NCBI GenBank assembly: GCA_963662465.1
Contig: OY759599.1
Location: 1,120,001-1,184,000 of the forward strand
DNA: 64,000 bases
Direction: 5' to 3'
Origin: Desulfatiglandales bacterium
Lineage (GTDB): Bacteria > Desulfobacterota > DSM-4660 > Desulfatiglandales > Desulfatiglandaceae
This document shows, piece by piece, positions 22,357 through 37,035 of this stretch (its first letter is position 1; the number at the start of each line of letters is the position of its first letter). The notes beneath the pieces were generated by a model. It was given only the letters and a program-made list of their open reading frames with translations. It did no database searches and was not told where the DNA came from. Made by a program: the position numbers and the translations under genes.

Positions 22357-22479
22357 TTCTCACTCCTTAATGGCCGAAATCTATTAACCGCTATTCTGTT
22401 AATGCAATGATGCGATAGAAAACCTAGCCTCCTCAGCATACCTTGTAAAGGGATGCAGTTGCAAGGGCAAGTTCACGAC

Positions 22480-22495
22480 TTTTCTCTTGACATGA
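22480..22495 (+). repeat. Putative attL
   Basis: TTTTCTCTTGACATGA, 15/16 identical to 36872-36887. Confidence 0.7.
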
Positions 22496-22621
22496 TAGGA
22501 GGCAGCATTTCCTTACTTCAATAAAATCAACAACTTAACATGACTAAACAGGGCGCAGGGAGCAAGATAATATACGGATAATGCTCCCTAAATGCAACCA
22601 AATTACCGCGTTTTACCAGGG

Positions 22622-22657
22622 GAGGCTGCCAAAATTATCCGGCAGCCTCTTTTTTTT
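22622..22657 (+). terminator. Intrinsic terminator inside the left end of the element
   Basis: GAGGCTGCC-loop-GGCAGCCTC followed by T8. Confidence 0.85.
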
Positions 22658-22689
22658 GTGATTTTTTTGAAAAAAAACAACCGGAGGGG

Positions 22690-22724
22690 TTGACATCACA
22701 TAAATAATGATGATAGTATTGTCA
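22690..22724 (+). promoter_or_regulatory. sigma70-like promoter with TGACA..TGTCA inverted repeat
   Basis: TTGACA-N18-TAGTAT upstream of ORF 22771. Confidence 0.55.
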
Positions 22725-22770
22725 TTAAGCAATACGCATATAAATATAGAGATACAGGGGGATGTAAAAA

Positions 22771-23043
22771 ATGAGCAAAAAATCGGTGACTATAAAATTG
22801 GAAGAGGACCGCGTGCAGCTATTGAATGACGCTGCCGATGAAATGAAAATTACGAAAACGGATATTATTAGCAGAGGCATACCGCTGGCGATTGTATGGC
22901 AGCGAGCAAAAGACGTGCTGCCCATGCCGAAAAAACTGATCTTTAACGAAAAAAGGGGTGTGTATCAAGCGGAGGCAGATTATCGAAAAGAATTTTTTGC
23001 GAAATTTGTGGAGCTGGCGGAGCGCAGCATAGCGATTCCATAG
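22771..23043 (+). CDS. Small ribbon-helix-helix-like DNA-binding protein
   Basis: KSVTIKLEED..LLNDAADEMKITKTDIISRGI pattern; GGGGG RBS. Confidence 0.55.
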   Translation: MSKKSVTIKLEEDRVQLLNDAADEMKITKTDIISRGIPLAIVWQRAKDVLPMPKKLIFNEKRGVYQAEADYRKEFFAKFVELAERSIAIP

Positions 23044-23197
23044 CACCGAAAACACAATTTAATATCTCAACTGGCGGGTGCCGCTCCCCTGGAATGGAGC
23101 ATCGAAAGATGAGGACCCCTTAATGGATGCCACGGAGATCAATTTCATTTTTGATTTTTGTGGCATTTTTTTTGTGCCACGGGAAGGGGAAGTTAAA

Positions 23198-23428
23198 ATG
23201 GCACAAGCATGGGGAGGAATCAAAGACGCTTGCCAGTATGCAGGGCGATGTGAGCGAACAGTAAGAAACTGGCTGGCGGAGGGATTAAGGCACAGTAGGT
23301 TGCCGAGCGGAAGAATCCTTATCAAATTTGACGACATCGATAATTACCTTTCGCAATTTGCAGTGACCGAATCCGAGATTGACCGGCAGGTGAGCGAGAT
23401 GCTGCGCGGCATGGGACGGAGGTGTTGA
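23198..23428 (+). CDS. Excisionase/HTH_17-like protein
   Basis: IKDACQYAGRCERTVRNWLAEGLRHSRLPSGRILIKFDDIDNYL. Confidence 0.8.
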   Translation: MAQAWGGIKDACQYAGRCERTVRNWLAEGLRHSRLPSGRILIKFDDIDNYLSQFAVTESEIDRQVSEMLRGMGRRC

Positions 23429-24612
23429 CCATGGGCTCATCACAACCAGGTTTTTTTAGTGCAGATGAACTGGCAGCGGATTTCGGAATTGAAAATCCCA
23501 TCGACAAAAAGAGCCTAACTGCTCGCTGGATCGTGCCTCCATTTAGCGTGCTGGATAGCCGTCAATCTTATTGGCAAAAGCGCAAAAGGCAGTGGCTCAA
23601 TTTGGGAATCCAGAGCGAGTTGGGCAGAGGCGAGGCATTAACGCTCGGCATCACGCCCGATGGAAAATCCACAAAAGATAAAAATGTAGCATGGACGGAC
23701 CGTGGCAAAGCCAAATTATCACCTGGTGGCTCGCCCATGCCAGCCGCAGACTACAGCCGACGCGAGAGAGGCGATGGGCGTGGACGACCAATGGCCAGAT
23801 GTTTCGGGGAGGATTTGATGAAGGGCGAAAACGCCAAATTTGCAAAAGCGCAACCGGCAATTAACTCCTTATATAATAGGAGCGAAACCGCAGGCGGCAC
23901 CGAATCCAAGACCGGCACATCCATTTTTGATCCGTGCTTGTGCGAGCTGGCAAATCAATGGTTTTGCCGTCCGGGTGGCCACCTGCTTGATCCTTTTGCT
24001 GGTGGCTCTGTTAGAGGCATCGTGGCATCAGTAACCGGACGGAATTACACCGGAATTGACCTATCTGAGAGGCAAATTGTGGCCAACAGGGAGCAAGGCC
24101 AGGAGCTATGCAAGGAGCCCATGCCGGAATGGATTGTGGGCGATGCTGGCGACGTGAGAACCCTTGCTGGCGGACCTTTTGATCTGCTTTTTTCATGTCC
24201 GCCCTATGGGAATCTTGAGGTTTATAGTGATGATCCACAAGACCTTTCAACCATGAGCTGGGATGAGTTTTTGAGCGCCTATCAACACATCATTAAAGAG
24301 TGCTGCCGGATGCTGCGCCCTCATCGTTTTGCAATTTTTGTGGTGGGCGACATCAGAGACAAGGACGGGCACTATCGCAATTTACCAGGCGCAACCATCA
24401 CCGCGTTTCAAGCAGCCGGACTGCAATTATACAACCATGCAATCTTACTTAACGCGCTGGGCTCCTTGCCGATCAGGGCGCACAAGCAGATGGCAGCATC
24501 ACGCAAACTGGGGAAGGGGCACCAGGATGTGCTGGTGTTTTGCAAGGGTTCATGGCGCAAAGCGGTGGCGGAGCTGGCGGATGAACAGATAAGAGGCAGT
24601 TATTTACGTTAA
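23422..24612 (+). CDS. Phage-type amino (N4/N6) DNA methyltransferase
   Basis: PPFSVLD, SIFDP, LDPFAGGSVRG, FSCPPY, HQDVLVF. Confidence 0.85.
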   Translation: MLTMGSSQPGFFSADELAADFGIENPIDKKSLTARWIVPPFSVLDSRQSYWQKRKRQWLNLGIQSELGRGEALTLGITPDGKSTKDKNVAWTDRGKAKLSPGGSPMPAADYSRRERGDGRGRPMARCFGEDLMKGENAKFAKAQPAINSLYNRSETAGGTESKTGTSIFDPCLCELANQWFCRPGGHLLDPFAGGSVRGIVASVTGRNYTGIDLSERQIVANREQGQELCKEPMPEWIVGDAGDVRTLAGGPFDLLFSCPPYGNLEVYSDDPQDLSTMSWDEFLSAYQHIIKECCRMLRPHRFAIFVVGDIRDKDGHYRNLPGATITAFQAAGLQLYNHAILLNALGSLPIRAHKQMAASRKLGKGHQDVLVFCKGSWRKAVAELADEQIRGSYLR

Positions 24613-24705
24613 GCCGTCTGGGCCCGTGCCGCTCCGGGAATGGGGCGGCAAGCGCTTCCTCCAACAGCGTGGGCCCAGATTTTTAAAATTTTGAAAGGGT
24701 TTGAA

Positions 24706-24960
24706 ATGGAACAGATACGGGTGAAATCATCAACAGAATTGATGGATATGAAATTTGAGCCAAAAGTAATTTGTGACGGAAAATGGATCACCATATTAAA
24801 TGATCACGGTGGTTATGACATCGAATTATCACGGTGTAATACCGCACAATCAATACTGGCGTGGGTTGCTCATCTGAGCGAAAAAATCTGGATTGAAACA
24901 CAAATGATTAATGAATTTGTGAAAATTGCTACGAAAAAAGCAGGCATAAAAATTTATTGA
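24706..24960 (+). CDS. Hypothetical protein
   Basis: ORF with AAAGGG RBS, co-oriented in the early operon. Confidence 0.55.
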   Translation: MEQIRVKSSTELMDMKFEPKVICDGKWITILNDHGGYDIELSRCNTAQSILAWVAHLSEKIWIETQMINEFVKIATKKAGIKIY

Positions 24961-25047
24961 ACGGCTTGCTCGGGGTGCCTCCTTGCAGGGAGGTAAAGGG
25001 CTCCTGCAAAGCCCAACTCCGAGCAATTTTCCATTGCAGGAGGAAAT

Positions 25048-27114
25048 ATGGACACAACACAATTAACAAGATTTGAACCTGATAAAATACCTCGGCGGAT
25101 GAGGATGCACAAGCAATGGATATGCTGGCGTCCGGTGCCACGAGACGGCGGCAAGGTAGATAAAATCCCGATTGATCCACAAACCCTCCGAGCGGCAAAG
25201 ACAAATGATAAGACCACCTGGACAGATTTCAAAACGGCGGTGGCATCGGCAAAGGCTAACAGCCTCGGGCTCGGTTTTGTGTTTTCAGAAACGGATACTT
25301 TTTGCGGGATCGACCTTGACGACTGCTTTGAGAACGGCAGACCGGTTGACTGGGCGCAAAACCTAGTTGAACAAATGGGCTCATATGCGGAGGTGACTCC
25401 ATCGGGCAAGGGGTTGCATATCATAGCCATGGGCGAGCTGCGAGGCAAGAGGCGGAGGAAGGGCCAGGTTGAGGCGTACCAGACCGGGCGCTTTTTTACG
25501 GTTACAGGTGCGAGATTGACGGACATCAATTATGTGGCCGAAAACCAGGACGGGATTGATCAGTTTTATCAGACCCATTTTGATGAGCCTGAGCCTGTGC
25601 CGGTTGCGCCACCGAAACCTGAGCCAGTATCGACACCGACACACACAGAAAATAATATCTTAAATGGGCTCAAATCCATATCAGCTTTTGAGCGTTTGTT
25701 CAATGGCGACATGGGCACCTATCCAAGTCAATCGGAGGCGGACCTCGCCTTGTGTAGCATGATTGCGCGGAGGACGGATGATCCACAGATGATTGATGAG
25801 ATTTTTCGTCAGTCAAGACTTTACCGTGACAAATGGGACCAGCTTAGGGGAGCCCAAACCTATGGTGGGATCACCATCGGCAAGGCGCTTGAGGGTGCGC
25901 CAGCTATCCCCACCATTGGCATAAGCACAAGGGATATGGATGTAGAGATCGAGCAATACAAGCCATTTCCCATGGATATTATGGGCGGACTTGCTGGTGA
26001 CTTTGCCATGGCGCAAAGCCAATGCGTGGAGGCGCCACCGGAGTTTTTGTATATGGCGTTTTTAACCTGCCTTGGATCAATACTATCCGGCAGAGCAACC
26101 ATTGCCATGGGGTGGGAGATACAGCCGAGGCTATACGTTTTGATCCTGGGTGAAACCGCAGAAGGGCGAAAATCCACAGCACTTAAGATTGTGACAAACT
26201 TCTTCAAGGATGCGTTTCGGGAAGACGAGCCAGCAAGTTTGAATTCTTCCTGGGGTTTCGGAAGCGCTGAAGGTTTACAAAAAGCTCTATCGGAGAATAA
26301 CAATTTATTGCTGTGTCTGGATGAGTTTAAAGCTTTTGTCTCAAAAGCCAGCATCAAAGGCAGCGTGCTACTCCCTGCCGTGACGCAGCTCTTTGAGAGT
26401 AACAGTTATGAGAACCAGACGAAAACCACACACCTTAAAATACAGGATGCTCATTTTTCGCTGTTGGCAGCGAGTACCATCGACACATATGAGAGAACAT
26501 GGGATGCGTCATTTTCGGATATCGGGTTCCTCAACCGGTTGTTTCTCATCGTGGGAAAGTCCGAGCGCAGGTTTGCATTCCCACAGCGATTAGACCAACA
26601 AACAGCCACCCATTACAAGGCGAGACTGCGCCAGATGATACACAAGATATATGCCGTTGATGGAGGCTTGATGCAGCTAGGATTTACACCTGATGCACAA
26701 GAGAAACACAGTGACTGGTATTTCAACCAGGATGAATCAATATACTCGCGCAGGCTGGACACATATGCACTAAGGTTGATGATCCTGCTGGCCATAAACG
26801 AGGGTAAAACGCTGATCGACAGCGAGGTGGTTGCTAAGGTTATCCGGCTTTGTGACTGGCAGCTTGATATCCGTAAATCACTGAGCCCGATTGACGGAGA
26901 TAATGCAGCGGCAATCATGGAGGAAAAGATCAGGAGAGCGCTGGCCACAAAGGGAGATTTAACTAAGAGAGAGTTGAGGAGATTTACAAATGCAGACCGG
27001 AGCGGTTTATGGTTATTCGATACTGCGTTAACGAATTTGATTAAAGCGGAGGAGGCGACACTTGCAAAAAGCGGACGCACGGAACTGTATCATTATATTC
27101 AACTGTCGTCATAA
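25048..27114 (+). CDS. Primase-polymerase fused to a DUF3987/YfjI-like ATPase-helicase
   Basis: QWICWR, GIDLDDC, YAEVTPSGKGLH, GRFFTVTG, SQSEAD, RDKWD; C-terminal GETAEGRKS, SAEGL, LDEF, GFLNR. Confidence 0.85.
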   Translation: MDTTQLTRFEPDKIPRRMRMHKQWICWRPVPRDGGKVDKIPIDPQTLRAAKTNDKTTWTDFKTAVASAKANSLGLGFVFSETDTFCGIDLDDCFENGRPVDWAQNLVEQMGSYAEVTPSGKGLHIIAMGELRGKRRRKGQVEAYQTGRFFTVTGARLTDINYVAENQDGIDQFYQTHFDEPEPVPVAPPKPEPVSTPTHTENNILNGLKSISAFERLFNGDMGTYPSQSEADLALCSMIARRTDDPQMIDEIFRQSRLYRDKWDQLRGAQTYGGITIGKALEGAPAIPTIGISTRDMDVEIEQYKPFPMDIMGGLAGDFAMAQSQCVEAPPEFLYMAFLTCLGSILSGRATIAMGWEIQPRLYVLILGETAEGRKSTALKIVTNFFKDAFREDEPASLNSSWGFGSAEGLQKALSENNNLLLCLDEFKAFVSKASIKGSVLLPAVTQLFESNSYENQTKTTHLKIQDAHFSLLAASTIDTYERTWDASFSDIGFLNRLFLIVGKSERRFAFPQRLDQQTATHYKARLRQMIHKIYAVDGGLMQLGFTPDAQEKHSDWYFNQDESIYSRRLDTYALRLMILLAINEGKTLIDSEVVAKVIRLCDWQLDIRKSLSPIDGDNAAAIMEEKIRRALATKGDLTKRELRRFTNADRSGLWLFDTALTNLIKAEEATLAKSGRTELYHYIQLSS

Positions 27115-27341
27115 CTGTCGTCAGGGGGTTTACGACAGTTATGTGGTTGATATGTTTAAGGAAACTGAAACTGTCGTCAAGATTAGTATATGTGGTACAG
27201 CTCCAGGCAAAACAATAATAAAATCTCTATATATCTATATGGGGGTAAAAACTGACGACACAAAGATATAAATGTAGTTATTTAAAGGAGTTAACTGTCG
27301 TAAATGGGCGACGACACTTTGACGACAGTTGACGACAGTTT
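27101..27341. repeat. Iteron-like array, candidate replication origin
   Basis: About nine exact or partial copies of AACTGTCGT(C/A)A in both orientations around an AT-rich core, right at the primase stop. Confidence 0.75.
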
Positions 27342-27372
27342 GAGATATATAAATCTGTGGAGGAAAAGAGTT

Positions 27373-27711
27373 ATGGGACGAAATTGGACCGACGAAATGA
27401 ACATTGATGAGGCGGTGGCGGTGGCGGATCTGCTCGGGATCAAGCACGAGCTGCGCCATACCAGCAACCAGGATTTTATGATTGATTTATACTGCCGTTT
27501 GATTGCGCTTGATAATGGCGTGATGTTTATCCGACGATATGAATTTGTGTGGAGTACCATATATGGCCAGGTAATTGAATGGTTTCAAAGGGCGCAGGAT
27601 GCTCTATGGAATTGCAATCGGTATGGAGCGGCAGACCATGGACCAGGCCAGCGGTGGGCGGCAGGACGGCAGGCACAGAAGAAATCTGACTCGGCACAAG
27701 TCTTGTCTTGA
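27373..27711 (+). CDS. Hypothetical protein
   Basis: ORF with GGAGG upstream; start inferred. Confidence 0.5.
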   Translation: MGRNWTDEMNIDEAVAVADLLGIKHELRHTSNQDFMIDLYCRLIALDNGVMFIRRYEFVWSTIYGQVIEWFQRAQDALWNCNRYGAADHGPGQRWAAGRQAQKKSDSAQVLS

Positions 27712-27761
27712 AACTGTATCAGGTTAATCCATAATTATGATACAGTTTTTGGGAGGTAGAA

Positions 27762-28160
27762 ATGAAACGAATTAAGGCAAAAATAAGGCAAAAACCGACC
27801 GATGGAGACGCCATGGCGCAGACCATCAAGACCGACGCCATTGACGGCAGGACCAAGCAGGCACGGCACATCAAGCGGATAAAGGACGGCTTGACCGATG
27901 CTCCCATCAACACCGCAAAGGCGCTGCTCAAGGCGCTCGTGGCGCAGAACACGGTGATCTCGCAGGAGATCTATAACGCTGCGCTCAACTCCGGCAGCCT
28001 CATCGACGCAAAGGGCAAGCTCAATCCACTCATCGAAAAGTCCCTGGTCAAATACCAGAACGCCAGCAAATCGGCTTTGATCGAGCTATTGAAACTTGAG
28101 GGCGGCAAGGCAGAGGACAATCCGGAGGACATTTTCAGCGATGTTTTTGACGGTTGCTAG
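27762..28160 (+). CDS. Hypothetical protein, possible terminase small subunit
   Basis: GGAGG RBS; helical 132 aa with IDGRTKQAR; positioned upstream of terL. Confidence 0.5.
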   Translation: MKRIKAKIRQKPTDGDAMAQTIKTDAIDGRTKQARHIKRIKDGLTDAPINTAKALLKALVAQNTVISQEIYNAALNSGSLIDAKGKLNPLIEKSLVKYQNASKSALIELLKLEGGKAEDNPEDIFSDVFDGC

Positions 28161-28286
28161 TATAGCATCAAGGCAAAACCTGGTGCCTATCCCTATGTTT
28201 TCTTTGTGGATTCCGTTTTCTCCTCTGCCGGTGGTTGCACCTGGGGAGCAATTCCGGCATGAAAACGGGGATTATCACCGGCTCCT

Positions 28287-28380
28287 GGGCCCAGGACCGG
28301 GTGCGGATATGCCGACGGACACCATGGCGCAGGGCCCAGGACCGGGTGCGGATATGACGACGGACACCATGGCGCAGGGC
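28287..28380 (+). repeat. 45-bp tandem duplication
   Basis: GGGCCCAGGACCGGGTGCGGATATG(C/A)CGACGGACACCATGGCGCA x2. Confidence 0.92.
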
Positions 28381-28661
28381 ATGGGCAAGGCCATTGCAAG
28401 GGCGCTATCACTACCTCCGATTGTGGGGCGGATGTGGGTGTCACAAGGCATAATCTGTACCTTAAATCAATAGCTTGTGGGAGGCCCCGACCTCGCGGTG
28501 TTGAAAACGATTTTTAATCGGGTATGAGCCCACACCCAAAATGTCAAAAATTAAAAATTATAGCATGACGCAAAACGCCAAAACCCAAAATGTAAAATTC
28601 AAAAATTATAACACACTGGCCATGGCCAGACACATAAACCCAAAAGAGAGAGGTAAAGACA

Positions 28662-28967
28662 ATGTGGCAAATAATTGATGTGCATTTGACGAACGATAGT
28701 GAGGGCGAGATCAAACTCGTCCGGCTCAATGAACAGGGAAAACCCACAACCGAGCGGATGGTCTTGCCCATTACCGTGACGGATAAATTTGATTTTACAA
28801 CCGCACCCGAAACCTTAACCGACGGTGCGGTGGCTGAATTGCTTGACGACATCCTCGAAACCTTGGATGTGGACGAGGAGCCGTTTCAACCAGCGTATAT
28901 TGTCTCGACCATGGCAAAACCAGCGCAACCCACAAAGGCAAAAGTAGTGGGCAAACTCAACGCCTAA
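28662..28967 (+). CDS. Hypothetical protein
   Basis: ORF with GAGG RBS upstream of terL. Confidence 0.55.
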   Translation: MWQIIDVHLTNDSEGEIKLVRLNEQGKPTTERMVLPITVTDKFDFTTAPETLTDGAVAELLDDILETLDVDEEPFQPAYIVSTMAKPAQPTKAKVVGKLNA

Positions 28968-29045
28968 CACCAAATTATTAACACAAAAAATCACACAGAA
29001 CCTCTTTGAAGGTCCGTGATTGAACAGGACACCTAGGAGGTTCCC

Positions 29046-30860
29046 ATGGGCACCGAAACAGCGACAAAACCCAGCAACAAAGACAGAGTTAAGAAATGGC
29101 GAGCAAACACACCCGAGGCGTTTCTCCAGTGGGTTGATGACATCAAGCCTCGCATATTGATAAACTCAAGATACGAGATATTTCAACCGACCGAAAACCA
29201 GCTCAAACTTATACACCAAATCCTGAAGCCAGCCGAAAATCCTATTAATCAATCTGTGGATGAGCCCGTGCAAGCCATAGGCGAGCGGTCCCATAACGCC
29301 AGGAAAGCCAGACCTTCCCGCAAAACAAAACCGGTTGACGAGGAGCAGCAACAGGCAAGGCGCTCATCTTTTCAACACAGCCTATCATTAATAATAGAGC
29401 CCAGACGTCATGGCAAATCCACTCTATTTTGCTTGATGTGTTTGTGGTTGTTCACCAGCCGGAGAAACATCACCATCCAGCTCCTGGGAAACACGGAATC
29501 CCACTGCCGCAGGGTCCAGTTTTCAACCGTCAAGAAAATCATTGCTAACACGCCGACGCTGCGGAAGCTCATACCGGAAAAGCAGATGTTTGTGTATGAA
29601 ATCTTTTTCCCTGCGCTCGGCAATGTTTTGCAGATGAGCCCAGGAAATAATCCCTCCACTTCCTTTGGCGAAAAAATAGATGTCCTCTGGGTGTCCGATT
29701 TACACGCATCCACCGACCTGGCACCGTTCAACGCTCTTCAAGGCTCGCTCCTTGACTCCAAGGATTCTGTTTGCTGGCTCGACTCCAATGTGGACAGCAA
29801 GGGTGGCACCGTACACATGATCCAGGAGGAGGCGGTAAATGATCCGTCAATTTTCGCGCACCATACCTTTTACCGGGACTTGAATCATTACTGCGCAGAG
29901 GCACCGCCATGGATTTCCCGCACAAAGGCCAGACGCCTGGCGAAAACTTCTCTCCCTGCTGATTTCCGTAGAGATATTTTGGGCAAGCGCTCTGACGCTT
30001 CAAACGCTCTCTTCCCATCGGACGTTATTGAAATGTGCAAGAGCCCATATAAATGTCCGGTTGAGGATATTCAAACTTTGACGCAGGGACGAGCGTATTT
30101 TGTGGGTGGCGGTTTGGATAGATCGAAATCATTGCTGGGCAGTACATTTGGTGCCGATGCCACTATTTGGACCTGCGTTTTGAAAGTAGCAAATCCCAAA
30201 AATGAGGAACCCGAGATTTTCCTTTTGAACCAGGTGAACGTCATACCGAACACCGCAGCAAATATCAAAAAAATCATACTCAAGGACCACCAGCGTTATG
30301 GTTTGAAAATGGCTTGCCTTGAGGATTACGAAACCATGGATATTATCCCATGGCTGGAAGCCCAGAACATTCCCGTTGAAAAAATGTCACCTCATTCAAC
30401 GCGGCAGAATGCGTCATTTCCGGAGCTGGCCAGAATCTCACGAGAGGGCAGGCTCCATTTTCCCGAGGACGAAAAAGGGCTCGCCGATGAAATGGCCACA
30501 TTCAGCTATGTGAAAGCTCCCAGGGGTGAGGGTTATTCATTTGGCCATTCTAGCAAAAATCAGCACGACGACAGAGTTTATTCCCTGAACTGGGCCATTT
30601 ATGCTTTACGCAGTCAAATCATGAACCTTTACACCCTCAACCGTATCACCTGCACATCAAAACGACCGAACCGGCACCTCTGTTTTTTGATGGGCGGCAG
30701 CTTGGAATTACACTGCGCCCAAAACTGCGAGGCAGCAGTTGAAGTGCGCGACATGCACCGGCAGTTCCTTCAATATCAGCTCGACAGTGATATTGACTTA
30801 TCCCAATTTTACAAAAACCACGTAAAATTGACCGGAATAAAAACATATCAGGCCATATAG
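29046..30860 (+). CDS. Terminase large subunit
   Basis: Walker A PRRHGKS, nuclease GGLDRS and HDDRVYS; upstream of the portal gene. Confidence 0.8.
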   Translation: MGTETATKPSNKDRVKKWRANTPEAFLQWVDDIKPRILINSRYEIFQPTENQLKLIHQILKPAENPINQSVDEPVQAIGERSHNARKARPSRKTKPVDEEQQQARRSSFQHSLSLIIEPRRHGKSTLFCLMCLWLFTSRRNITIQLLGNTESHCRRVQFSTVKKIIANTPTLRKLIPEKQMFVYEIFFPALGNVLQMSPGNNPSTSFGEKIDVLWVSDLHASTDLAPFNALQGSLLDSKDSVCWLDSNVDSKGGTVHMIQEEAVNDPSIFAHHTFYRDLNHYCAEAPPWISRTKARRLAKTSLPADFRRDILGKRSDASNALFPSDVIEMCKSPYKCPVEDIQTLTQGRAYFVGGGLDRSKSLLGSTFGADATIWTCVLKVANPKNEEPEIFLLNQVNVIPNTAANIKKIILKDHQRYGLKMACLEDYETMDIIPWLEAQNIPVEKMSPHSTRQNASFPELARISREGRLHFPEDEKGLADEMATFSYVKAPRGEGYSFGHSSKNQHDDRVYSLNWAIYALRSQIMNLYTLNRITCTSKRPNRHLCFLMGGSLELHCAQNCEAAVEVRDMHRQFLQYQLDSDIDLSQFYKNHVKLTGIKTYQAI

Positions 30861-30862
30861 CC

Positions 30863-31090
30863 ATGATTGACGCAATAAATAACAAAACAGACCAAAAAAA
30901 AGACTGGACAAATCGGAAAACATCAATTATGGTTGATATTCGATGTTTTAACTGCAATCGGTTGTTATGCACGGGGCACATAACCGAGGGAGAAATAGTT
31001 ATCAAGTGTGGTAAGTGCGGCAAGATGATAACTATAGGCGCACATGGCGCACAACCGGCAACGGTTAAAACGGTCCGGTTAGTGCGCTAA
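30863..31090 (+). CDS. Com-family zinc-ribbon regulator
   Basis: DIRCFNCNRLL...IVIKCGKCGK. Confidence 0.75.
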   Translation: MIDAINNKTDQKKDWTNRKTSIMVDIRCFNCNRLLCTGHITEGEIVIKCGKCGKMITIGAHGAQPATVKTVRLVR

Positions 31091-31120
31091 AAATCACAAA
31101 AGAAATCAGAGCCCATTCAG

Positions 31121-31157
31121 AGGCCATTTGCGGATTATACCGCAGGTGGCCTTTTTT
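31121..31157 (+). terminator. Terminator/attenuator-like hairpin before the portal gene
   Basis: AGGCCATTTGCGG-ATTATA-CCGCAGGTGGCCT followed by a T run. Confidence 0.7.
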
Positions 31158-31180
31158 AGTTTGCCCCAAAGGAAAAAACA

Positions 31181-32521
31181 ATGCTTTGGAATAGTACAGC
31201 AAAAGACGTGGTGCAGAAGATGTTCAAGGAAGCTGCGGAGAAGGAAACGCGAGCCAGGAAGGATGATACCATCAAGCGCTTGTCCTATTATCACGATGAG
31301 CAAGAGGCGTATATCACCGAGCAGCTCAATCAGCACCACGCCGATCCGGACGCTTTTACGCCTGTTTTTTTCAACGTCTGCAAAAAAATCATCAATCAGC
31401 TCTCCATGGTTTACATGGCGGACGCAACACGAGAGATTGACGGCAGCGTCCAAGACAAAGCCATATTCGACATGATTGTGGATTCTTCAAATCTGAATCT
31501 CAAGATGAAAACCGCCTCCCGTTATACGCAGCTCTTAAAAACAATCATGCTGCGTCCGATCTGGCGACAGGGAAAAATGGACCTGGATATATATGATGGG
31601 AGCATACTTGACGTTGAAACCGGTGACTCTCCCGAACACCTGGAAAGGGTGATGGTTACGCACTATCCACAGAGCGGAGAATCTAAGGACATCGAATATA
31701 GTTTATGGGACATCGAAACATACCGCAGGCTGGATTATAACGGCAACACCCTCGAAAACGCACAAAACCCATATCAAGTAATCCCTTTTGTGCCGATCTG
31801 GGCAAGCTATCCGGCAACCGGCAGTTTCTGGGCGGCAGGCGGTAATGATTTAATCTCGGTGCAAAGTACCATCAACCAAAAACTCACGGATTTAATGTTA
31901 GTTTTGGAATATCAGGGTTTTGGTGTTCCTGTGGCAAAAGGGTTGCCCACGGGTGGAAATTTGCACATCGGACCGAATACCGCAGTGGAAATCGAAAATC
32001 CAGAGGGTTCCTTTGAGTTCCAGGCCACCAGAGCGCCCATTCAACAGATTCTCAATTCAATAGAATTCCTCGCAAAGAATCTCGCCATATCGAACGGCTT
32101 GAGCGCAGCATCCATGAGCGTTAAACCGACGCAGGAATCCGGTTTGAGCCGTATCAGTGGCAGCACAGAATTGACGGAATTACGAAAAGACCAGATCAGC
32201 CTTTTTGGGCGCTATGAAAGACAGCTTTTCGCCATGTTCAAAACGGTATGGAATGCGCACAATCCCACCAAAAAGATAACCGAAAACGCCAGGCTTAAGA
32301 TTGACTTTTTTGATCCGCGTCCGGTGATGAGCCCAGATAAACAGGCAGAGCTATGGGCGGCAGAATTAGAGATGGGCACCATATCAAGGACGGACATCCT
32401 AATGCTCAAGAATCCAGATTTGAGCAAGGAAGACGCAATAGAAAAACTGGCTGAAATCCAGGCAGAAAACAAAACCTATAACACCTCGTCTCCTGAGACG
32501 TTAAACCAGCCGGAGGAATAA
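31181..32521 (+). CDS. Portal protein (SPP1 gp6-like)
   Basis: YY..Q, NVCKKIINQ, NPYQVIPFV, QSTIN, ESGLSR, IDF; size and position between terL and scaffold. Confidence 0.8.
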   Translation: MLWNSTAKDVVQKMFKEAAEKETRARKDDTIKRLSYYHDEQEAYITEQLNQHHADPDAFTPVFFNVCKKIINQLSMVYMADATREIDGSVQDKAIFDMIVDSSNLNLKMKTASRYTQLLKTIMLRPIWRQGKMDLDIYDGSILDVETGDSPEHLERVMVTHYPQSGESKDIEYSLWDIETYRRLDYNGNTLENAQNPYQVIPFVPIWASYPATGSFWAAGGNDLISVQSTINQKLTDLMLVLEYQGFGVPVAKGLPTGGNLHIGPNTAVEIENPEGSFEFQATRAPIQQILNSIEFLAKNLAISNGLSAASMSVKPTQESGLSRISGSTELTELRKDQISLFGRYERQLFAMFKTVWNAHNPTKKITENARLKIDFFDPRPVMSPDKQAELWAAELEMGTISRTDILMLKNPDLSKEDAIEKLAEIQAENKTYNTSSPETLNQPEE

Positions 32522-32524
32522 ATT

Positions 32525-32905
32525 ATGGCAGATGAAACCGTCAACACGGACGTAAACAGTGGAAATGAAACAACCCAGACCGACACGGGAAACACACCCG
32601 AAAAAAGTGAAACGATGATCCCTAAAAGCAGATTCGACCAGATCAATCAGCAAAAACGAGAGGCGATTGACGCTCTTAAATCTGTGGCTGATCTTATGAC
32701 GCAGGACGTGCCGGAAGCCTATCAAAGCCTGGTGCCGGAATTACCGCCAGCACAAAAGATTGAATGGATTAGACAGGCGCAAAAATCAGGGATTTTCAAT
32801 CAGCAAAAAGAAAACGGTCTGGACAGTAAAAGACCAGCAGGCAAACCGCCTCTGGATACAAGTAAAATGCAGCCAATGGAAATGATGGTCCATGGCTACA
32901 AATAA
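32525..32905 (+). CDS. Capsid scaffolding-like protein
   Basis: MIPKSRFDQIN motif, low-complexity N-terminus, C-terminal ..GYK; directly before the capsid gene. Confidence 0.7.
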   Translation: MADETVNTDVNSGNETTQTDTGNTPEKSETMIPKSRFDQINQQKREAIDALKSVADLMTQDVPEAYQSLVPELPPAQKIEWIRQAQKSGIFNQQKENGLDSKRPAGKPPLDTSKMQPMEMMVHGYK

Positions 32906-32920
32906 CGAGGAATAAATATC

Positions 32921-33856
32921 ATGGCAATTTCACTAATTGAGGCGAGCAAGCTTAAAAACGATCCCCTGGCAAAAGGGATAATTATGTGTTTCCCGCAGGC
33001 ATCTCCGGTGCTTGAAATGATTCCATTTCTATCTGTGGCCAGCGACAGCTACAAATACAACAGAGCCGACACGCTGCCCAGATCAGATTTCAGGGCGCTC
33101 AATGAGAACTACACAGAAGGGACCAGTTCCCTCGATCACGTAACCGAATCCCTCACTATTTCTGGCGGTTTCTCTGACGTTGACAGAGCGCTTGTGAAGA
33201 CACAGGGTAATATTAATGATCTGCGGGCAATTCATGACGCACTTAAAGCCAGATCCTGCGCCTTGAAATGGGAAAAGACTTTTTTCAAGGGCGATTGTGA
33301 GTCAGATTCTAAGGAATTCGATGGGCTCCAGACTCGCCTAATCGGTGACCAACTGATTGACGCAGGTTCCAGCGCAGGAGGCGATGCTCTTTCCCTGGCG
33401 AAACTCGATCAGCTCCTGGACCAAATCGATGGAAGCCCAGACGCGCTTTTTATGAACAAAACCATGAGAAGGAGATTGACGGTTGCGGCAAGAACCACAT
33501 CGGTGGGCGGTGACATCAACTATACGCTGGATCAATTCGGACGCCGAGTCACTACCTATAACGATGTGCCGATCAGAATCGTTGAGGAGGATGAAGAGAA
33601 TAACGATATTCTCGGATTTGATGAGGCCTGTGCCTCCGGAAGTTCTGTCGGCACAAGCATCTATGCGGTGAAATTCTCACTGGGAACTCACTGTTTTGGC
33701 CTGCAATGTGGCGAGCTTGAAGTGCTCGATATGGGCCTGTATTCGGGCGGTGTGAAGTATCGAACTCTCATTGAGTGGATCAGCGGATTTACTCTGGCAC
33801 ATAATAAATCAGCGGCAAGACTGCGCTATATTAAGGACGCTGCGGTTGTCGCTTAA
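32921..33856 (+). CDS. Major capsid protein
   Basis: MAISLIEASK, SPVLEMIPF, FRALNE, GGFSDVDR, FFKGD..EFDGL, TSIYAVK, AARL. Confidence 0.85.
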   Translation: MAISLIEASKLKNDPLAKGIIMCFPQASPVLEMIPFLSVASDSYKYNRADTLPRSDFRALNENYTEGTSSLDHVTESLTISGGFSDVDRALVKTQGNINDLRAIHDALKARSCALKWEKTFFKGDCESDSKEFDGLQTRLIGDQLIDAGSSAGGDALSLAKLDQLLDQIDGSPDALFMNKTMRRRLTVAARTTSVGGDINYTLDQFGRRVTTYNDVPIRIVEEDEENNDILGFDEACASGSSVGTSIYAVKFSLGTHCFGLQCGELEVLDMGLYSGGVKYRTLIEWISGFTLAHNKSAARLRYIKDAAVVA

Positions 33857-34053
33857 ACGATAAATTAGGCCACCTGGTCCGAGCTGACACCATGATAAAC
33901 GAGGGTTTTTATCCTTTTTCTTCCTTCAAATATTTTTATCATGATTGTGGCCATAAAAGCTCGGACTCGCACCCTGCGGAGTGCGTCAAGGAATCTTAAC
34001 AGATTTTCTGCCGTTAAAGCCATGGGCGGTGGGGTTGTCCCACCGCCTATCTT

Positions 34054-34443
34054 ATGATCAGTTTCCCTTTCATCAAGCTGGAGGGATTTTATGGTGGGCA
34101 GCTTGCCCCAAAACCTGCTGCCCATCATTATAAAATCACAATGCAAAAACGCCAGATCGAAAAAATAACATATCGTGATCATAGATGTGCCGGTTACGAA
34201 AAGTGCCTCAAGACGGCAGCGATTATGGATTATCCCATGGATTGCCGGGACTGCCCAAACCGACGCCACAAGATACCTCGCCCTTCTCCTATTCACAATG
34301 AAATGATAACGGAAGAAGCCGAAAACTGCACAAGGCTCCTTCAAGCGATTTTCCATCCAGAGCGATATTACCACAAACACGACGTCCGGCAATGGGTCGA
34401 ACCGCCAGCGGATGCACCTTTGGCAAGGGTTGAATGGCTTTAA
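34054..34443 (+). CDS. Hypothetical Cys-containing protein
   Basis: CAGYEKC..CRDCPN; start uncertain (possibly 34141). Confidence 0.45.
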   Translation: MISFPFIKLEGFYGGQLAPKPAAHHYKITMQKRQIEKITYRDHRCAGYEKCLKTAAIMDYPMDCRDCPNRRHKIPRPSPIHNEMITEEAENCTRLLQAIFHPERYYHKHDVRQWVEPPADAPLARVEWL

Positions 34444-34569
34444 TTCAAGGATTGATTGAGGTGGGATTTAGATTCCTGATCCCCATGAATGAGGACCAGG
34501 AATTTCGGAACTCCTCCGCATAACGTTTTCATAATTTCACCATGTAGAAAAAAGGTGGGGTTTAGGCGG

Positions 34570-34758
34570 TTATTCTATTGTTAATTGTTCTCCCGTTTCA
34601 TTATCAAACCACAGCATGGTATCTCCCTCTTCAATATCCTGTGTTGTGATAATTTTATCCTGCCGGATATCTTTTGGTAACTCGTCGCCAGAACATTTTA
34701 CTATCGAATCATCATCTTTGAAATAGCCACGGACAGCCTCTTTCATCATTGTTGTCAT
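34570..34758 (-). CDS. Hypothetical protein
   Basis: AGGAG RBS; overlaps the upstream ORF (ATGA). Confidence 0.5.
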   Translation of the reverse strand: MTTMMKEAVRGYFKDDDSIVKCSGDELPKDIRQDKIITTQDIEEGDTMLWFDNETGEQLTIE

Positions 34759-34955
34759 ATAAGGCTCCTTTCTTCTGTAGAAATTTCTAATTTTTCGCTG
34801 ACATCGTTAAATATCTGGAGCGCTTCATCCAATGACCCTTGAACATATCCAGAATATTCATTCAATTCATCCTGAAAAGAATATGCAGTTTTCAGGTGCT
34901 GCCCCATTTGTGTTAATTGTTTTCTAACCTCATCCATCATTTCACTTTCAATCAT
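34755..34955 (-). CDS. Hypothetical protein
   Basis: GGAG RBS; coupled to 34570-34758. Confidence 0.5.
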   Translation of the reverse strand: MIESEMMDEVRKQLTQMGQHLKTAYSFQDELNEYSGYVQGSLDEALQIFNDVSEKLEISTEERSLI

Positions 34956-35399
34956 TTCAATATCTCCATTAGGGTTGACGTTAAACTGCTATCCGTTACC
35001 ATTTCATTCTGTGTTTTCACCTCCTTTAATAGTTATTTTCGATCAGCTTTTAAAAACCATTATAGCATATTTTCAAGTTTTTCTTTAAAAAATATTCAAA
35101 AAAATTACAGTGCCGGACCCGTCTCCTTTCTCAATCATTTCCTTATTATACCATTTTCTTAACGTTTTTTTACGGTTTTCTTTCCTGGTTCAAAAATAAA
35201 TATCTCACTATAAACTTGCTGTCAGCGGCACGAGATTAAACGCCAGATTGACCTATACAATCATATTAACCACCTCCCGAACGTTGAACCTGGGCAATCC
35301 TGCAAGGCCACATTTTCGCCCAGACGCCTATCTTTTCTTAATCTGCGCCCTAATCCACATAAATACTGGATATTTCTCGATTAATCACCGGAATAAAGC

Positions 35400-35432
35400 T
35401 TGACATCAATATAACTCATCTTTACTGTGTCA
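35400..35432 (+). promoter_or_regulatory. sigma70-like promoter of the RHH-integrase operon
   Basis: TTGACA-N17-TACTGT with TGACA..TGTCA inverted repeat. Confidence 0.6.
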
Positions 35433-35464
35433 GACAGATTCAAACACAAAGGAGGAGAATAACG

Positions 35465-35650
35465 ATGAGCGAAAAATTGATGAGTTTCAGGGTTGATGAA
35501 TTTTTAAGGGATGAATTCAAAATGGCGGCAGCGTTTCGTCGGAAGACCATGGCGCAGGTGCTTAATGACAAGATTGTTGAGTTTGTGGAAGAAACCATGG
35601 CGGCAATGAATGACGCACAAGATAAACGTAAAAAAACGTCTAAAAAATGA
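35465..35650 (+). CDS. Ribbon-helix-helix-like regulator
   Basis: KLMSFRVDEFLRDEFKMAA..RKTMAQVL; AGGAGG RBS. Confidence 0.65.
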   Translation: MSEKLMSFRVDEFLRDEFKMAAAFRRKTMAQVLNDKIVEFVEETMAAMNDAQDKRKKTSKK

Positions 35651-35679
35651 TATAATAGAAAGTAAAAAGGAGAATTAAC

Positions 35680-36840
35680 ATGGGCGTGAATGTAAGGGAG
35701 AAACCGACAGGCAGCGGGATTTGGTGGGTATTTGCTAACCACAAAGGAGAAAGGAAGTCTTTAAAAGTAGGCAGAGATAAAAAAACGGCTTTAAAAATTG
35801 CAAAGGTTACAGAAGCAAGACTGGTTCTCGGGGATCTGGATATAGATGATTTCAACAAAAAGGTTCCCACGCTGAAAAAGTATGCAGAGAAATGGTTCTC
35901 CCTGCCGCACAAGACCGGCAAGGGCACCATGCACACCTATAAAAGGAATCTCGAATTGCATGTTTATCCGGTATTAGGGAACCGTCCGCTTGACCAGCTT
36001 AAACGAAAAGATTTTAAGGATATGTTTAATGACCTTCTCACAAAGGGTATGGCAGAGAGTAATTTTCAAAACATCAAATCACCTCTGAGTAGGATATTTC
36101 ATGAAGCCATGGATGACCAGTTGGTTCAAGTCAATCCTTTGGCTGGATTGTCATATTCAAAGGCCAGCAAAATTGACATCAAGCCATTGACCGAGGAGGA
36201 GGTTTTCACCTTTCTGGATGCCGCAAAAGAATATGAGGGAGGAAGATATTATCCAATTTTCTTGACCTTGCTACGCACGGGAATGAGGATAGGCGAGGCA
36301 TTAGGGTTGCAATGGCAGGATATTGATTTCAAATGGGACCCTAAAAAAAAGGAGGGACGCCAAATCCACATTCAAAGGCACATGGTAAAAAATGTGGCAA
36401 AACCAGGGACGAAAAACGGCAAGACCAGAACGGTTGACATGACACCGGTTTTGAGCGACACTCTGCGAGCGCTCAAACGTGAGAAACAGAAGGAAGCATT
36501 AAAAACCGGAAGGCCTTTTTGCCAGTATTGTTTCGCCATGGGAGACAAAACCGAGCCGGTCAGTTCTCAATGGATGGGAATAACCATGCCGGAAATATTG
36601 AAACTTGCCGGTTTGCCGAAAATGAGGATTCATGACCTGCGGCATACATACGCAACCATCAGGATAATGAATAGCCACAACATCGCAGACGTTTCTTATC
36701 AGATGGGACACAGTTCTATAAAAATTACGATTGACACCTACACGCACTGGAAACCGGGGAGATTTAAGAGTGAGGTTGATAAGTTAGACCTGCAACCAGA
36801 CGCAACCCAGACGCAACCACAGGAAAATGAAAATGGATAA
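35680..36840 (+). CDS. Tyrosine integrase
   Basis: TGMRIGEALGL, TKNGK, HDLRHTYA, MGHSSIKITIDTY. Confidence 0.95.
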   Translation: MGVNVREKPTGSGIWWVFANHKGERKSLKVGRDKKTALKIAKVTEARLVLGDLDIDDFNKKVPTLKKYAEKWFSLPHKTGKGTMHTYKRNLELHVYPVLGNRPLDQLKRKDFKDMFNDLLTKGMAESNFQNIKSPLSRIFHEAMDDQLVQVNPLAGLSYSKASKIDIKPLTEEEVFTFLDAAKEYEGGRYYPIFLTLLRTGMRIGEALGLQWQDIDFKWDPKKKEGRQIHIQRHMVKNVAKPGTKNGKTRTVDMTPVLSDTLRALKREKQKEALKTGRPFCQYCFAMGDKTEPVSSQWMGITMPEILKLAGLPKMRIHDLRHTYATIRIMNSHNIADVSYQMGHSSIKITIDTYTHWKPGRFKSEVDKLDLQPDATQTQPQENENG

Positions 36841-36871
36841 AATTAACAGTTTCAAGGAGTTGGTCAAGCAG

Positions 36872-36887
36872 TTTTCCCTTGACATGA
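36872..36887 (+). repeat. Putative attR, overlapping a -35 box upstream of fabH
   Basis: TTTTCCCTTGACATGA 31 bp after the integrase stop; GCAACC repeats (possible arm sites) at 36792-36818. Confidence 0.7.
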
Positions 36888-37035
36888 AAGTTCCGGCTAA
36901 TTATATCAAACATATTATTTTGGGTAGAGATGGTTTAAGTTATGTATTTCAAACAGGATATGATCTGTTGAATCATTGTGGGGTTGTAGCGCGACATTAC
37001 AATGGGTAAGTTTGATTTGGAAGGATGACTTTAAA

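Follow-up and report, generated by a model that had tools for sequence, protein, structure and literature searches.

A neckless, head-only integrative element in a Desulfatiglandales genome: a candidate capsid-forming phage satellite

Phage satellites that borrow tails have precedents in the phage-inducible chromosomal islands of the capsid-forming kind (cf-PICIs), MulchRoom, and Ando (PMC10085698, PMC10690885, PMC13587820). Cf-PICIs encode a maturation protease, an HNH protein, and a head-tail adaptor and connector (bioRxiv 10.1101/2022.09.08.507074, 10.1101/2025.02.11.637232; PMC10085698). More generally, the capsid-forming satellites in these papers carry adaptor and stopper genes of their own, which in cf-PICIs determine the tails that are taken. 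An earlier note, made from sequence, had likewise described cf-PICIs as building their own protease- and connector-containing heads and borrowing tails, in agreement with PMC10085698. Here we analyze the subject of that note, a 14.4-kb element (14,392 bp between exact 10-bp repeats) within a 64,000-nucleotide stretch of a Desulfatiglandales bacterium genome (contig OY759599.1, positions 1,120,001 to 1,184,000; hereafter the window). The element is not a decayed prophage but a mobile-looking, selectively maintained head-only element, and what distinguishes it from other capsid-forming satellites is its missing neck. On balance, we favor the reading that it is a capsid-forming phage satellite that takes a whole neck-plus-tail from a helper.

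Pfam and PHROG scans run on the 18 open reading frames (ORFs) of the element supported an excisionase, a methyltransferase, a primase-helicase, a large terminase (TerL), Com, a portal (weakly), a major capsid protein (MCP), and a tyrosine integrase. The ORF listing and these scans reproduced the gene order and intact ORFs reported in the earlier note. The head and packaging genes are as follows.

27762..28160, + strand: putative small terminase (terS), 132 aa, assigned by position and conservation; no family match
29046..30860, + strand: TerL, 604 aa (phrog_2, 7.5e-13)
30863..31090, + strand: Com-like zinc-ribbon regulator, 75 aa (Pfam/PHROG)
31181..32521, + strand: divergent portal, 446 aa; weak matches to phrog_533 (2e-6) and phrog_104 (2.5e-4)
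32525..32905, + strand: putative scaffold, 126 aa, assigned by position and conservation; no family match
32921..33856, + strand: MCP of the BPP-1/epsilon15 type, 311 aa (PF20911; phrog_212, 3.8e-69)

The MCP matched PF20911/PF17236 and phrog_212, not PF05065, and its best solved structures were 3j4u and 3j40 (BPP-1, epsilon15); capsids of this type are a branch of the HK97 fold. An AlphaFold model of the MCP from a 9-row alignment reached a pLDDT of 31 and was not used. The best cultured relatives of the MCP are the siphoviruses PK2 and Tripp (42–46% identity). No BLAST match to the portal or TerL was found among 50,697 phage records, and scanning viral contigs and plasmids with the TerL protein on its own returned nothing. 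Following established knowledge, we take TerL to carry a Walker A motif (PRRHGKS), a non-canonical Walker B motif (SDLH), and nuclease aspartates (Asp357/371/508-509), along with a Cys-rich C-terminus. The ratio of nonsynonymous to synonymous substitution rates (dN/dS) between the element and its relative L026 was 0.08 for the MCP, 0.08 for the portal, and 0.20 for the scaffold; for L039 versus L112 it was 0.08–0.12, and synonymous sites were mostly saturated in wider pairs. With dN/dS of about 0.1, the head genes are under purifying selection. We also observed a clade-specific basic, proline-rich insertion at approximately residues 60–105 of TerL and a Cys-rich C-terminal extension; two 45-nt tandem copies at 28287-28376, between terS and the ORF o101, which could be a packaging region; and, in L039, which also has Com, a Mom-family gene directly before terL (L039:5388-6158).

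No tail, connector, protease, holin, or endolysin family matched in the 18 ORFs, which bears out the absences noted earlier. When 205 six-frame segments of the element were searched at maximum sensitivity with family hidden Markov models (HMMs) for neck, cement, and MuF genes, none was detected, the best neck E being about 1. The largest gap without an assigned gene is 510 nt, and the tail tube, tape measure, and lysis genes of a complete temperate tailed phage are absent between the att sites.

Seven neckless elements form a single clade: the element analyzed here, L026, L003/L151, L020, L039, L146, and L149. All seven lack cement, MuF, adaptor, and stopper genes. They are distinct from one another (53–85% identity in head proteins), and their grouping received FastTree local support of 1.0 in a portal-plus-MCP tree (52 rows) and 0.994 in an MCP tree (69 rows). 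That seven distinct elements share this anatomy, with purifying selection on the head genes, argues against a decayed prophage. The common layout consists of the capsid gene, a small ORF termed o129, variable cargo, and a recombinase module. L151 is the exception, with its integrase inverted at the opposite end, and L039 carries a serine recombinase in place of the integrase, so the terminal co-oriented integrase that the earlier note had put forward as characteristic is not diagnostic. Five of the seven have identifiable repeats, at different sites, and measure 12.8, 13.1, 14.4, 15.2, and 16.5 kb; in L039 and L149 no att repeat could be identified. L146 (G516 C1:4196500-4204000) is adjoined by a second, oppositely oriented element with integrase and primase genes.

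Two neck-bearing loci, L005 and G401 (L150), are nested within this clade as sisters to the element and L026. G401 is a complete circle (14,565-bp record, 110-nt terminal repeat) without an integrase, and it encodes a primase, the head module, cement, a LamG protein, two to three unassigned proteins, and the neck proteins Ad1 and Hc1. Neither a tape measure nor a tail tube was recognised in it. Since its neck proteins are only ~25–35% identical to other family necks, re-acquisition of a neck appears plausible from the sequences. G401 and L005 recall MiniFlayer and could donate necks.

Scans with the capsid, portal, and terminase gathered a wider family of 105 loci, each with a complete capsid gene and a portal, which formed 60 clusters at 95% capsid identity. 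This count excludes complete phages in which the capsid is distant and the portal found no match (L012, L094, L176, L177), the weak L018 and L019, MulchRoom, MiniFlayer, and duplicate loci from the host's own genome. Repeat-bounded or circular members span 12.8–16.5 kb. The portal profile matched in 5 of 209 genomes in a class-wide sampling, indicating that the family is rare, and relatives came from records titled Deltaproteobacteria, Desulfarculus, Desulfomonilia, and Desulfobacteraceae. Downstream genes were counted in the 37 clusters with at least 2.5 kb beyond the capsid gene. Some neck gene of siphovirus type (Ad1, Hc1, Ne1, or Tc1) occurred in 25 of these 37, with the Ad1 adaptor in 22, which indicates that family heads are built to dock onto tails. 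MuF was present in 24 and a cement-like gene in 20; a tape measure was found in one (L110) and the tail tube searched for in none. Twelve of the 37, in several branches, had no neck genes, suggesting that the neck has been repeatedly dispensable. Besides the neckless clade, five clusters without neck genes (L025, L041, L190, L006, L102) kept MuF or cement, and because L025, L041, L006, and L102 fall outside that clade on the tree (L190 was not placed), the neck was evidently lost more than once. In L102, related elements with genes for ParA and a serine recombinase stand in tandem, the repeats being ~14.8 kb apart; cement is present and a neck is not. Missing connectors are a derived trait in this mostly neck-bearing family. 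The earlier note had read them as one mark of a new type; the absence is real and clade-wide, but it arose within a family in which most clusters keep necks.

The borders of the element are set by two short repeats.

22486..22495, + strand: attL core CTTGACATGA, where the empty-site unitig branches
36878..36887, + strand: attR core CTTGACATGA, an exact repeat of the attL core

Counted from 22480 and 36872, the att repeats are identical at 15 of 16 positions. The 10-bp core by itself is not above chance, with 21 copies in the host genome; the borders are validated by the reads rather than by the repeat alone. In runs X1 and X2, which derive from one sample, the element assembled as its own unitig (22466-36907) at depths of 29.8 and 26.6, compared with 40–46 for the flanks, and a 50-nt unitig at depths of 13 and 20.3 connected the left flank at 22495 to 36888-36907. 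Occupied and empty sites therefore coexist in the sample, and the empty site may reflect a sister strain or excision loss. Run X3 yielded scattered pieces of the element only, with one contig joining 31346 to 30121. An empty core also lies upstream of a fabH-like gene in four of the six same-genus loci examined, which together with the empty-site unitig upholds both att sites proposed in the earlier note.

Within the attR core, upstream of the fabH-like gene, a TTGACA box precedes TATATC by 17 nt, and the box is conserved in the same-genus empty sites. We infer that it is a promoter element; given that the core contains the box, integration probably swaps the DNA at the promoter and restores the promoter. 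A promoter scan gave counts near chance, and the att box was not among its listed sites. The integrases of L026 (74%) and L151 (52%), which are related to that of the element, also use TTGAC-containing cores, and this recurrence in three related integrases suggests targeting of −35 promoter boxes. These cores lie at 22486-22495 and 36878-36887 in the element, at L026:1245 and 17761, and at L151:811 and 15974. A response-regulator gene is the insertion site of L020, and a tRNA-like sequence that of L146, whose integrase is unrelated (22%); there are no tRNA genes within the window.

For the life cycle, our observations comprise the insertion site, the gene content, its conservation, and the empty site, and the course between them is reconstructed. 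Insertion is site-specific at the 10-bp core, as the repeats and the empty site show. A helper would trigger excision by Int/Xis, and replication would proceed from an iteron cluster by the element's own primase-helicase. A small head, probably T=4 and about 45 nm, would then assemble on the scaffold and be filled by the element's own terminase. The size estimate follows from the T=4 cf-PICI capsid and from the 43.7-nm head that MulchRoom uses for 14.8 kb (PMC10690885, PMC13587820); assembly and filling are suggested by intact genes under purifying selection and by the 12.8–16.5 kb size range. The filled head would expose a bare portal, with adaptor, stopper, and tail supplied in trans either by a neck-bearing family member or by a phage that co-infects the cell and has an SPP1-type (Ad1/Hc1) neck, and release would occur through helper lysis. 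A matching helper class exists, as shown by L171, a phage of 106 kb that combines a full tail with Ad1 and Hc1 of the family's types.

Several observations weigh against this proposal. The attP junction was not seen in runs X1–X3, whose contigs drop rare forms. The family Ad1/Hc1 HMMs matched nothing in the host genome, and no compatible helper was found there; the only tailed prophage found in the host (G000 C1:1-29,000, truncated where the contig begins) is lambda-type in head and neck. We found no precedent in the literature for a bare portal accepting a foreign adaptor, and in cf-PICIs it is the satellite's own adaptor and connector that set tail compatibility (bioRxiv 10.1101/2022.09.08.507074, 10.1101/2025.02.11.637232; PMC10085698). 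With no BLAST match to the portal in phage records, it is less obvious that a foreign adaptor would fit it. The TerL Walker B motif is non-canonical across the whole family (S/A/D-D/E-x-H), and in one of the seven neckless elements, L146 (G516), terS is split and the portal gene frameshifted, through decay or assembly error. The description of the family as purely head-only is qualified by a tail-tube gene in three short-contig clusters (L092/L169, L170, L173) and a tail terminator in L084. Members with single tail genes sit in other branches (portal 41–44% for L092, L110, and L170) and may be complete phages, or else satellites that have captured tail genes. The PHROG tail-gene scan covered 59 of 65 downstream representatives, with four more scanned separately and two left out, and it overlooked the L092 tube gene, which was spotted by eye. 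The single tail genes lie beside the head module at L092:10303-12056, L170:9301-11053, L110:6278-9451, and L084:3887-4721. Searches of host genomes with phrog_477, phrog_161, and PF20557 gave no match, but neither did any control. The host prophage (L133, L134) comprises a gpA-type terminase, portal, protease, capsid, gpW/gpZ-like neck, and an 893-aa tape measure, and the 12-kb stretch flanking it has a second copy at 8.08 Mb that lacks the prophage.

Four small ORFs bear on whether a connector is hidden in the element.

24640..24960, + strand: phage protein o106, 106 aa (phrog_12459, phrog_2559)
27304..27711, + strand: conserved ORF o135
28662..28967, + strand: ORF o101
34141..34443, + strand: o129, a Cys4 protein, likely zinc-binding, probably starting at 34141 (longest ORF from 34054)

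If any of these were an unrecognised adaptor or stopper, the element would be an ordinary MulchRoom-like satellite, an outcome that we consider quite improbable. What speaks for it is that o129 occupies exactly the position that cement, MuF, and neck genes take in relatives, in 7/7 neckless elements, and that structure prediction covered o129 alone among the four. The predicted o129 fold consists of two helices and loops (pLDDT 86, pTM 0.46); it had no BFVD match at E ≤ 0.001, and its best Z against 48,161 PDB chains was 3.6, over one helix only. ESM Atlas matches for o129 and o101 were all below 0.9 and unnamed. The o129 family comprises ~140 small Cys4 proteins, some of them fused to helix-turn-helix (HTH) domains, and one member neighbors both Ad1 and Hc1 in L188; judging from these sequences, o129 is likely a regulator rather than a connector. 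Profile-profile comparison of o129, o101, and o135 with Ad1 and Hc1 gave probabilities below 1%, and o101 is present in just four of the seven neckless elements, whereas o135 also occurs in the neck-bearing sister L150. A second o101 homologue is located in the host genome at G000 C1:368770-369081, by a 292-aa ORF and an integrase-like remnant (C1:367801-372343), possibly another small element.

A prophage remnant with deleted late genes and lost mobility could account for the tail tube, terminator, or tape-measure genes on truncated contigs of distant members (L092, L170, L173, L084, L110), the broken genes in G516, and the lack of an excised circle in the reads. We regard it as very improbable, since the same architecture persists at saturated synonymous distance and at different insertion sites, the integrase and att sites are intact with dN/dS of about 0.1, and the 50,697 records hold no tailed phage with the element's portal or TerL. 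The earlier note had likewise weighed a deleted prophage or a known cf-PICI; the head genes of close relatives are not followed by a full tail module, and the element is not a known cf-PICI. It is rather improbable that the element is an interference island whose head genes are a decoy soaking up helper scaffolds, necks, or tails while its DNA moves in helper capsids or otherwise. Its own proteins cannot close the head, and a cement gene, present in most relatives and in BPP-1/epsilon15, is missing (the cementing role being established knowledge); a decoy, however, would not need the terminase pair, portal, and scaffold that selection has kept, and sizes vary within a narrow range, in keeping with a packaging limit. 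We give little credence to a tail-independent particle, in which the head would retain DNA without a neck and reach cells by vesicles, uptake, or cell contact. The clean, clade-wide loss downstream of the capsid gene, with head genes still under selection, and a host genome without a matching helper would suit such a particle, but the portal has no clade-specific insertion, extension, or plug relative to neck-bearing relatives, no candidate for receptor binding or lysis occurs in the element, and most relatives have kept tail-docking genes. Of the earlier proposal of a distinct satellite or tail-less particle type, the satellite part holds, in that the element is a capsid-encoding, satellite-like non-cf-PICI with relatives in the records named above; nothing shows a tail-independent particle. 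Unlikely, if worth bearing in mind, is that sulfate reducers host two-tier piracy, with neckless heads closed and armed by the necks of sibling satellites such as G401, whose head genes are the nearest to theirs, or that bare heads travel tail-less. Under two-tier piracy, neckless elements would be satellites of satellites, and in either form the family would span head-only, head-plus-neck, and head-plus-neck-plus-single-tail-gene states and would show the reduction of a tailed phage to a satellite.

Outside the head module, the element carries genes for regulation, replication, and integration.

22690-22719: consensus sigma70-like promoter, before the ribbon-helix-helix (RHH)-type regulator
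22771..23043, + strand: RHH-type regulator, 90 aa (RHH_3, E 0.076, weak; phrog_876, 3.8e-4)
23198..23428, + strand: excisionase-like HTH protein (xis), 76 aa, probably starting at 23198 (HTH_17, 7.6e-7; phrog_66)
23422..24612, + strand: N6/N4 DNA methyltransferase, 396 aa (Pfam/PHROG match)
25048..27114, + strand: NrS-1-type primase-polymerase fused to a DUF3987 helicase, 688 aa (Pfam/PHROG)
27100..27340, no strand: probable replication origin, nine short repeats in both orientations
34570..34955, − strand: variable slot with two small cargo ORFs of 62 and 66 aa; the 62-aa ORF is 40% identical to L003
35465..35650, + strand: RHH-like regulator preceding the integrase, 61 aa (PHROG, conservation)
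35680..36840, + strand: tyrosine integrase, 386 aa (Pfam/PHROG; catalytic motifs present)

The methyltransferase slot is variable and holds a topoisomerase-like gene in L020 and L039. Nine of the ten short-motif matches in the element cluster at 27103-27332, consistent with the origin that the earlier note had placed there; relatives carry other repeats at this position. A 39-nt inverted repeat (35144-35182 with 35619-35657) flanks the RHH gene before the integrase.

Maintenance of the neckless clade under selection since synonymous saturation implies that the host-parasite interface has moved to the portal, and it raises the question of how a filled neckless head stays closed and finds a tail. 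The BPP-1/epsilon15-type capsid lineage also adds, in sulfate reducers, to the convergent origins of head-forming satellites, independently of cf-PICIs and MulchRoom. Detectors that rely on the core genes of cf-PICIs would probably overlook the element. A literature search that did not extend to supplements or to the marine VEIME and Phanie papers, which may list such elements, turned up no published account of this family, nor of any capsid-forming satellite without connectors.

Like the cf-PICIs EcCIEDL933 and KpCIDSM30104 (~15 kb), the element falls within 10–18 kb, has a tyrosine integrase, an excisionase-like regulator, and a primase-helicase, and encodes its own terminase, portal, and capsid without tail, holin, or lysis genes. 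Unlike them, it has no adaptor or connector, maturation protease, HNH, or AlpA match; its capsid belongs to PF20911 instead of PF05065, and a 126-aa scaffold-like ORF lies between the portal and MCP. The absence of connectors, protease, and HNH and the different capsid family place it outside the cf-PICIs. EPIPs and haloarchaeal SRCEs also differ from the element. PK2 and Tripp/Halcyonevirus have a similar order of TerL, portal, minor capsid, scaffold, and MCP; these phages, BPP-1, and epsilon15 are complete 50–60 kb tailed phages in which the element's portal and TerL find no BLAST match.

MulchRoom (OQ784832), Ando, and MiniFlayer share with the element the order TerS-TerL-portal-scaffold-MCP (the element's scaffold being assigned by position), an integrase, and a length of 13–15 kb. 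A portal, scaffold, and capsid without a tail, taken as distinctive in the earlier note, thus already exist in MulchRoom and Ando. These Streptomyces satellites have small heads on helper tails (PMC10690885, PMC13587820). MulchRoom brings its own adaptor and stopper and no primase, in contrast to the element, which has its own replicon and no neck. The MulchRoom portal matches phrog_104, as that of the element does weakly, and the MCPs differ (phrog_10 versus phrog_212); hhalign comparison with shallow profiles gave probabilities of 0.2% for the MCP and 0.5% for the portal. Cf-PISP TG54 of Vibrio crassostreae (PMC13230959) is likewise capsid-forming and tail-less, at 15.8 kb. It is a plasmid with a PF05065 capsid, protease, adaptor, and closure genes, whereas the element is integrative and has none of these, and TG54 is the closest analogue of the family's circular, integrase-less members.

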